A stretch of DNA of 64,000 nt, from assembly GCF_003334405.1 (NCBI RefSeq), contig NZ_QOWM01000001.1, one strand, 5' to 3'. The position numbers and the translations under genes are program-made. Shown in pieces: positions 7,142 through 7,240 of this stretch (positions are counted from its first letter, which is position 1; each line of letters begins with the position of its first letter). The stretch is from Escherichia coli (GTDB taxonomy: Bacteria > Pseudomonadota > Gammaproteobacteria > Enterobacterales > Enterobacteriaceae). Below the pieces are notes generated by a model that saw only the letters and a program-made list of their open reading frames with translations, ran no database searches and was not told the DNA's origin.

Positions 7142-7240
7142 GCCGGATGCGGCGTAAACGCCTTATCCGGCCTACAAATTCTGCAAATTCAACAAATTGC
7201 GAATCCCTTGTAGGCCTGATAAGCGTAGCGCATCAGGCAT
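7142..7240. repeat. REP/BIME-type palindromic repeats (two inverted units)
   Basis: gccggatgcggcgtaaacgccttatccggcctaca and inverted gtaggcctgataagcgtagcgcatcaggca; canonical enterobacterial REP sequence. Confidence 0.85.

Follow-up and report, generated by a model that had tools for sequence, protein, structure and literature searches.

The two features described here are, with a probability of about 0.9, ordinary members of the Escherichia coli REP/BIME family, the element between pepB and sseB (site 1) being a BIME-1 and that between hda and yfgD (site 2) an atypical pair, with roles in RNA proposed for their hairpins. Both copies are already known, having been catalogued previously in K-12 BIME tables. 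REPs are short non-coding imperfect palindromes in transcribed intergenic DNA; REP/BIME elements have been known since 1984, and their spread and maintenance are credited in the literature to the REP-associated tyrosine transposase TnpA-REP.

Two inverted REP pairs in a K-12-type chromosomal segment

The window, that is the whole 64-kb stretch of DNA that was analysed, is E. coli K-12-type chromosome. A 601-bp stretch at each site matches 5426 of 5426 complete E. coli genomes (in the median, the megablast query across site 2 does so at one place per genome), and neither intergenic region differs from that of K-12 MG1655 (100% identity), to whose numbering the window runs antiparallel (MG1655 position = 2655075 + (7133 - window position)). 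By annotation the gene neighbours are pepB and sseB at site 1 and hda and arsC at site 2, arsC being the name that PGAP gives to yfgD, and the gene names used in an earlier note on this DNA were thus right. The MG1655 RefSeq annotation holds no repeat features at either junction. Two program-made open reading frames that run over the repeats (7147-7491 and 44220-44591, both on the plus strand) were set aside, as they overlap the real genes in other frames. Directly 3' of sseB, at window 8050-8353 on the minus strand, lies a full-length Rfam match to the small RNA ryfA (314.9 bits); in MG1655 a small toxic protein, TimP, is encoded at this locus as well.

The earlier note had placed canonical REP units, as inverted pairs, at pepB/sseB and hda/yfgD, and had proposed a REP consensus search across the window. 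When that search was run, it returned exactly four units, all of them at these two sites, arranged as two tail-to-tail inverted pairs and lying almost exactly where the note had put them (Table 1). The features that define an E. coli REP are imperfect palindromy, an internal loop and a foot of GTAG/CTAC (PMC3333891). The four units, of 34, 29, 34 and 37 nt, conform to the 30-40 nt imperfect palindrome expected, each stem carrying an internal loop, and the foot is present as CTAC at 7172-7175 and 44178-44181 and as GTAG at 7210-7213 and 44204-44207. Both sites are extragenic, lying between annotated genes, and the elements are of high copy number: across all 5426 E. coli genomes the 97-bp element of site 1 matches at least 27 places per genome (median at least 40), and the 93-bp element of site 2 a median of 27.

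Table 1. Features of the two REP pairs and of the genes that flank them, with predicted RNA folds (window coordinates).
Feature	Position	Strand	Sequence	Remarks
pepB	ends 7133; stop TAA 7131-7133	+		ORF
y REP	7142-7175	+	GCCGGATGCGGCGTAAACGCCTTATCCGGCCTAC	iREP orientation, ends CTAC; 1 mismatch to y consensus; fold -21.3 kcal/mol, z = -5.0
L-type linker, 34 nt	7176-7209	+	AAATTCTGCAAATTCAACAAATTGCGAATCCCTT	same motif as L consensus
IHF-like core	7187-7199	+	ATTCAACAAATTG	core form ATTCAAcaaaTTG
z1 REP	7210-7238	-	GCCTGATGCGCTACGCTTATCAGGCCTAC (+ strand GTAGGCCTGATAAGCGTAGCGCATCAGGC)	GTAG first on + strand; fold -11.5 kcal/mol
sseB	ATG start 7276	+		co-directional with pepB
hda	stop TAG 44131-44133	+		ORF
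y-variant REP	44148-44181	+	GTCGGATGCGGCGCGAACGCCTTATCCGAACTAC	GTCGGATG...CCGAC subtype, extra tail change CCGAAC; fold -16.5 kcal/mol
Linker, 22 nt	44182-44203		GCGAAGTTAATCCATAGTATTC	neither L linker nor 13-nt S-type
z2-like REP, 37 nt	44204-44240	-	GCCGGATGCGACGCTTGCCACGTCTTATCCGGCCTAC (+ strand GTAGGCCGGATAAGACGTGGCAAGCGTCGCATCCGGC)	fold -19.6 kcal/mol, z = -4.3
Non-REP hairpin	44242-44269		ATGTGCTTCA / TGGAGCACAT	10-bp arms, 8-nt loop; abuts yfgD stop
yfgD	stop codon 44271-44273	-		convergent with hda
Single REP units				RNA fold -11.5 to -21.3 kcal/mol, z -2.9 to -5.0
Site 1 fold	7134-7250			RNA fold -46.8 kcal/mol, z = -5.7
Site 2 fold	44134-44270	+		RNA fold -63.6 kcal/mol, z = -6.8
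Site 2 fold	44134-44270	-		RNA fold -55.1 kcal/mol, z = -6.0

The individual searches agree on this content. With up to three mismatches the y-REP consensus had one match (7142-7175, one mismatch) against none in 100 shuffles, and the REP tail CTTATCMGGCCTAC, allowing up to two mismatches, occurred four times, only at the two sites, against 0.39 expected. A blastn-short search of the 64 kb with the four units, the linker and the consensus sequences of y, z1 and z2 REPs revealed no further REP. The head motif GCCKGATGCG with one mismatch was found 16 times against 14 expected, which is chance level and makes it useless for REP detection. Three weak matches were rejected as chance, those at 33773 and 57242 because they lie inside long open reading frames and have no palindromic partner, and that at 14546 because it consists of a 10-11-nt head match alone, with no REP tail. 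A published table of K-12 BIMEs (table DS3, PMC6379681) likewise lists exactly these two loci within the interval spanned by the window. Its coordinates equal those of MG1655 U00096.3 minus 221, an offset that was checked on the iscR-yfhQ BIME-2, where 2662088-2662353 in the table is the array at 2662309-2662574. With 221 added, the entry 'BIMEs1 2654749-2654845' corresponds to window 7142-7238, and 'BIMEs2 2617747-2617783' to window 44204-44240.

A BIME-1 at pepB-sseB and an atypical pair at hda-yfgD

To read both sites as canonical inverted pairs was correct and yet incomplete, as they are two different kinds of element and the IHF-binding RIB/RIP class had been omitted. In a BIME-1, which is present once, a single y REP faces a single z1 REP in inverse orientation, and the long L linker between them is conserved and often contains an IHF site (PMC3333891). 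Judged on its sequence, the 97-bp element of site 1 is a single BIME-1 (RIB/RIP element), because a y and a z1 unit stand inverted around a linker that matches the L consensus. The y REP begins 8 nt 3' of the pepB stop codon, the z1 unit is identical to the z1 consensus at 30 of 30 positions over 7210-7239, and the pair is present in a single copy with no tandem repetition.

The linker was tested independently by scanning one genome per species for CTTATCCGGCCTAC-N26-42-GTAGGCCTGATAAG, which located at least 120 loci. Among the matches listed there were 128 y...z1 linkers, of which the 78 that are 35 nt long gave the L consensus AAAAtcgTGCAAATTCAATATATTGCAgaaacCtt; the motif WWTCAANNNNTTR is present in 81 of these 128 listed linkers and in the linker of site 1 too. 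The site 1 linker is therefore the long conserved type with the IHF consensus: its core retains every specified position that the family consensus and the IHF motif WATCAANNNNTTR have in common, and its one mismatch to WATCAANNNNTTR is identical to the mismatch of the family consensus. The y...z1 layout was seen, among the matches listed, in Escherichia (including E. coli and E. albertii), Citrobacter, Pseudocitrobacter, Kosakonia, Pluralibacter and Salmonella enterica arizonae. A perfect y...z1 BIME layout also occurred on a 262-bp contig (NZ_AGAF01000060.1) labelled Desulfosporosinus sp. OT, from a Firmicutes assembly, and this contig is most likely contamination of the Desulfosporosinus assembly.

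Site 1 thus resembles the BIME-1 (RIB/RIP, REP-IHF-REP) in its inverted tail-to-tail y and z1 units, its 34-nt L linker with the TGCAAATTCAAnAnATTGC core, its length of 97 bp, which is the modal length of the 78 published K-12 BIME-1s, and its occurrence as a single copy at the 3' end of a gene. Nothing substantial sets it apart. Its linker is 1 nt below the commonest form of 35 nt; where it departs from the consensus, it does so at a few flanking sites and, within the IHF motif, at two N positions. As DNA, the L linker belongs to a sequence class that binds IHF (RIB/RIP), and this copy may be expected to be occupied by IHF as well.

Site 2 is of a different kind. A BIME-2 combines y and z2 units with a short linker in tandem arrays, and other combinations are termed 'atypical' (PMC3333891). 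The hda-yfgD element is a single pair and thus departs from the y plus z2, short S linker, tandem arrangement. Its first unit gives a 26-nt match, at 92-96% identity, to the y unit of site 1 and to the y consensus (blastn-short), and its stem begins 14-15 nt 3' of the hda stop codon. The second unit, at 44204-44240, has about 87% identity over 38 columns to the z2 consensus, and carries G:C where z2 has T:A, so that it is y-like at the pair that discriminates y from z. Likeness to the BIME-2 between iscR and trmJ lies in the combination of a GTCGGATG...CCGAC y REP with an inverted long-loop z2-like REP, and in the filing of the second unit as 'BIMEs2' in the published table (PMC6379681); the iscR-trmJ y REP is of the site 2 subtype but has a compensatory C:G to T:A change. 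In contrast with that BIME-2, the linker of site 2 is 22 nt long and unrelated to the 13-nt GGTTCTGTTCACT of iscR-trmJ, the pair is not in tandem, the z2-like unit has G:C for T:A, and zero gyrase cleavage has been recorded. Site 2 is best named an atypical BIME or REP pair, therefore, as it is a single pair, has an unrelated 22-nt linker, shows G:C at the y/z discriminating pair and lacks gyrase cleavage.

The second unit has, in addition, been independently recognised as a REP by a mobile element. IS1397 inserts specifically into REPs (PMC1525189), and in strain SC418 (NZ_LR778147.1) the counterpart of unit 44204-44240 carries a natural insertion of an IS1397-family element in its loop, flanked by a duplicated 3-bp CAA and with the junctions ...GACGCGGCAA/TGAACTGAACCCC... 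and ...GGGGTGCAGTTCA/CAAGCGTC... (the slash marks the junction). Of the four units this is the only one for which such a loop insertion was found. In SC418 the transposase gene is annotated as frameshifted, and the first REP of site 2 is also absent. Next to the second unit, the non-REP hairpin at 44242-44269 is an inverted repeat that forms in the folds of both strands and shows one substitution (44267) across three divergent strains that were aligned; a U-tract is missing after it on both strands, and the terminator scan there was empty.

Gyrase, small RNAs and transcript ends

The suggestion of the earlier note that the units are gyrase-binding elements is unsupported for these copies. It could be argued that gyrase binds and cleaves the pairs and that they organize local supercoiling, as REP DNA is bound by gyrase in vitro and BIME-2 clusters are cleaved in vivo (PMC6379681), gyrase prefers y-type REPs, of which each site has one, and the heavily cleaved iscR-trmJ cluster lies only about 100 bp outside the start of the window. 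Table DS3 of PMC6379681, however, reports gyrase cleavage-site counts for K-12 BIMEs by Topo-seq, and at both loci (44204-44240 and the site 1 BIME-1) the in vivo count is 0 under ciprofloxacin, rifampicin plus ciprofloxacin, microcin B17 and oxolinic acid. Indeed the BIME-1 class as a whole is depleted, the 78 BIME-1s together having 3 observed cleavage sites against 9.0 expected (P = 0.02), and cleavage is concentrated in tandem BIME-2 arrays (PMC6379681), whereas neither site is tandem. A role of these two pairs in gyrase-mediated organization is thus very unlikely. The iscR-trmJ element itself, a three-fold tandem BIME-2 (MG1655 2662309-2662574) lying about 100 bp outside window position 1, was cleaved at 3-6 sites under three of the four treatments (DS3, PMC6379681), in contrast with both uncut sites of the window.

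It is improbable in the extreme that the sites encode small RNAs of the naRNA4 or ES036 type, acting in trans on the nucleoid. Rfam naRNA4 (RF02564) scores 40.3, 31.2 and 28.5 bits on REP units and ES036 (RF02751) 29.7 bits on the L linker, and a passage in PMC4550694 states that most REPs are transcribed; all of these scores, however, are below the gathering thresholds of 59.5 (naRNA4) and 37.6 (ES036), and promoter-like sites are confined to a weak 9/12 match inside site 2, with none at site 1. The naRNA4 RNA was itself derived from a REP cluster, REP325. For that reason, similarity to it does no more than restate membership of the REP family. The sub-threshold ES036/CssrF match covers 7176-7217 on the plus strand, and suggests a different BIME-1 copy as the basis on which the ES036 family was defined.

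There remains the RNA made from the flanking genes. The single units and, to a greater extent, the longer segments are predicted to fold stably (Table 1), and in the longer folds the paired REPs of a site mostly base-pair with each other. GC-rich stem-loops directly after stop codons could be taken for Rho-independent (intrinsic) terminators of pepB, hda and yfgD, and passages of PMC3333891 and PMC12306157 report REPs as attenuators. Against this, no terminator-like site was detected within 7134-7265 or 44134-44270 on either strand; a U-tract is absent after all stems, and neither element has the GC-rich stem followed by a U-tract that defines an intrinsic terminator. Bicyclomycin-sensitive Rho regions, moreover, lie beyond site 2 on both strands (PMC7815308, supplementary file 2). 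One, with a Rho score of 6.5, is at MG1655 2618272 (+), antisense to hda (minus strand of the window, near 43936); the other, with a Rho score of 9.8, is at MG1655 2617709 (-), antisense to yfgD (plus strand of the window, near 44499). On each strand the Rho region is about 200-230 nt past the hda or yfgD stop and about 210-260 nt past the REP pair. At site 1 the lists of PMC7815308 contain no Rho region or 3' end, the next on that strand being beyond sseB and antisense to sseA, and this pattern suggests that the pepB transcript reads through into sseB. Intrinsic termination at these elements is, then, extremely unlikely.

A role of the hairpins in the fate of the transcripts is plausible for these copies, as an exonuclease barrier and possibly in the damping of translation. 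It has been proposed that REP hairpins shield Rho-terminated mRNAs from 3'->5' exonucleases (PMC6061677). At site 2, which lacks an intrinsic terminator, the hda and yfgD transcripts would read through the pair, and both convergent transcripts would stop a few hundred nucleotides on, inside the opposite gene, because Rho regions stand beyond the pair on both strands; the REP hairpins would then be likely end-points of exonucleolytic trimming. Site 2 has stable stems with no U-tract after the stop codons and Rho regions downstream on both strands, similar to the REP-stabilised 3' ends of Peters 2012 and Dar & Sorek 2018, a resemblance that is one of layout only. On the pepB-sseB transcript each REP of site 1 may fold on its own, or the y and z1 units may pair in a single long hairpin; such structures would be expected to slow 3'->5' exonucleases. 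The earlier note had called the elements potentially mRNA-stabilising, and this is favoured by the strong hairpins with no U-tract and by the Rho regions beyond site 2; on the other side, the curated Term-seq list of about 1000 ends (PMC7815308) assigns no dominant 3' end to pepB, hda or yfgD.

The position of the stems may also matter for translation. A REP that lies closer than 16 nt to a stop codon can, by stalling ribosomes, reduce the translation of the gene before it (Liang et al. 2015, as cited in a passage of PMC12306157), and by distance alone both the pepB REP (8 nt) and the hda REP (14-15 nt) qualify under this rule; the supplements of PMC12306157 (RepRanger) contain no mention of pepB, sseB, hda or yfgD. 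At pepB the first stem may impede the terminating ribosome, because it begins so close to the stop codon. We infer, for these copies, the exonuclease barrier, the translational effect and the occupancy of site 1 by IHF.

Variation among strains and its possible consequences

The two elements were previously described as markers of the enterobacterial core chromosome. They are indeed chromosomal (about 99.9% of the roughly 190,000-216,000 matches to the elements in the 5426 E. coli genomes) and belong to an enterobacterial family, but their stability was overstated, since E. coli genomes are polymorphic for site 2. There the first REP, with part of the linker, is absent from 808 of the 5426 genomes (15%), in which the deletion allele was counted directly; the allele lacks roughly 32 nt just 3' of the hda stop, window 44157-44189. 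Comparison of the alleles shows the one-REP form to be a deletion, because a TTGTCGGATGCG stub remains. The exact two-REP segment was found by megablast in 3487 of 5426 genomes, a figure that undercounts two-REP alleles with a central SNP, and other genomes presumably carry substituted two-REP variants, as strain AR_0081 does.

Site 1 is present in divergent E. coli strains with a variable linker, which in one strain includes an 18-bp duplication. In the Escherichia strain SCPM-O-B-8794, whose pepB is 92% identical, 24 bp have been lost, so that half a REP is left, fused to the pepB stop. The 10-nt sequence CGGCGTAAAC occurs twice at this junction, first across the pepB stop codon (7126-7135) and again within the y-REP loop (7150-7159), and the lost segment lies precisely between the two copies. 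At the same junction Kosakonia cowanii has three REP-like units, which belong to another sequence type; the pepB-sseB junction is thus occupied by REPs in distant genera, either by turnover or by independent insertion. With 15% of genomes lacking the first REP of site 2 and one lineage lacking half of the y REP of site 1, any function of these REPs is therefore dispensable or modest.

The importance of the finding is small, REP and BIME elements having long been described and both copies being in published K-12 tables. What is gained is the division of the two sites into an IHF-type BIME-1 and an atypical pair, the removal of the gyrase idea and the record of a REP polymorphism on the hda side. 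Hda is the inactivator of DnaA. It is conceivable, though unlikely, that the one-REP/two-REP polymorphism alters Hda synthesis or the stability of hda mRNA and that the pepB REP likewise throttles PepB through ribosome stalling and tmRNA. The presence or absence of the hda-side REP offers a possible natural test of the effect of a stop-proximal REP on expression, and, if the proposal were true, E. coli lineages could differ slightly in their control of replication initiation via Hda.
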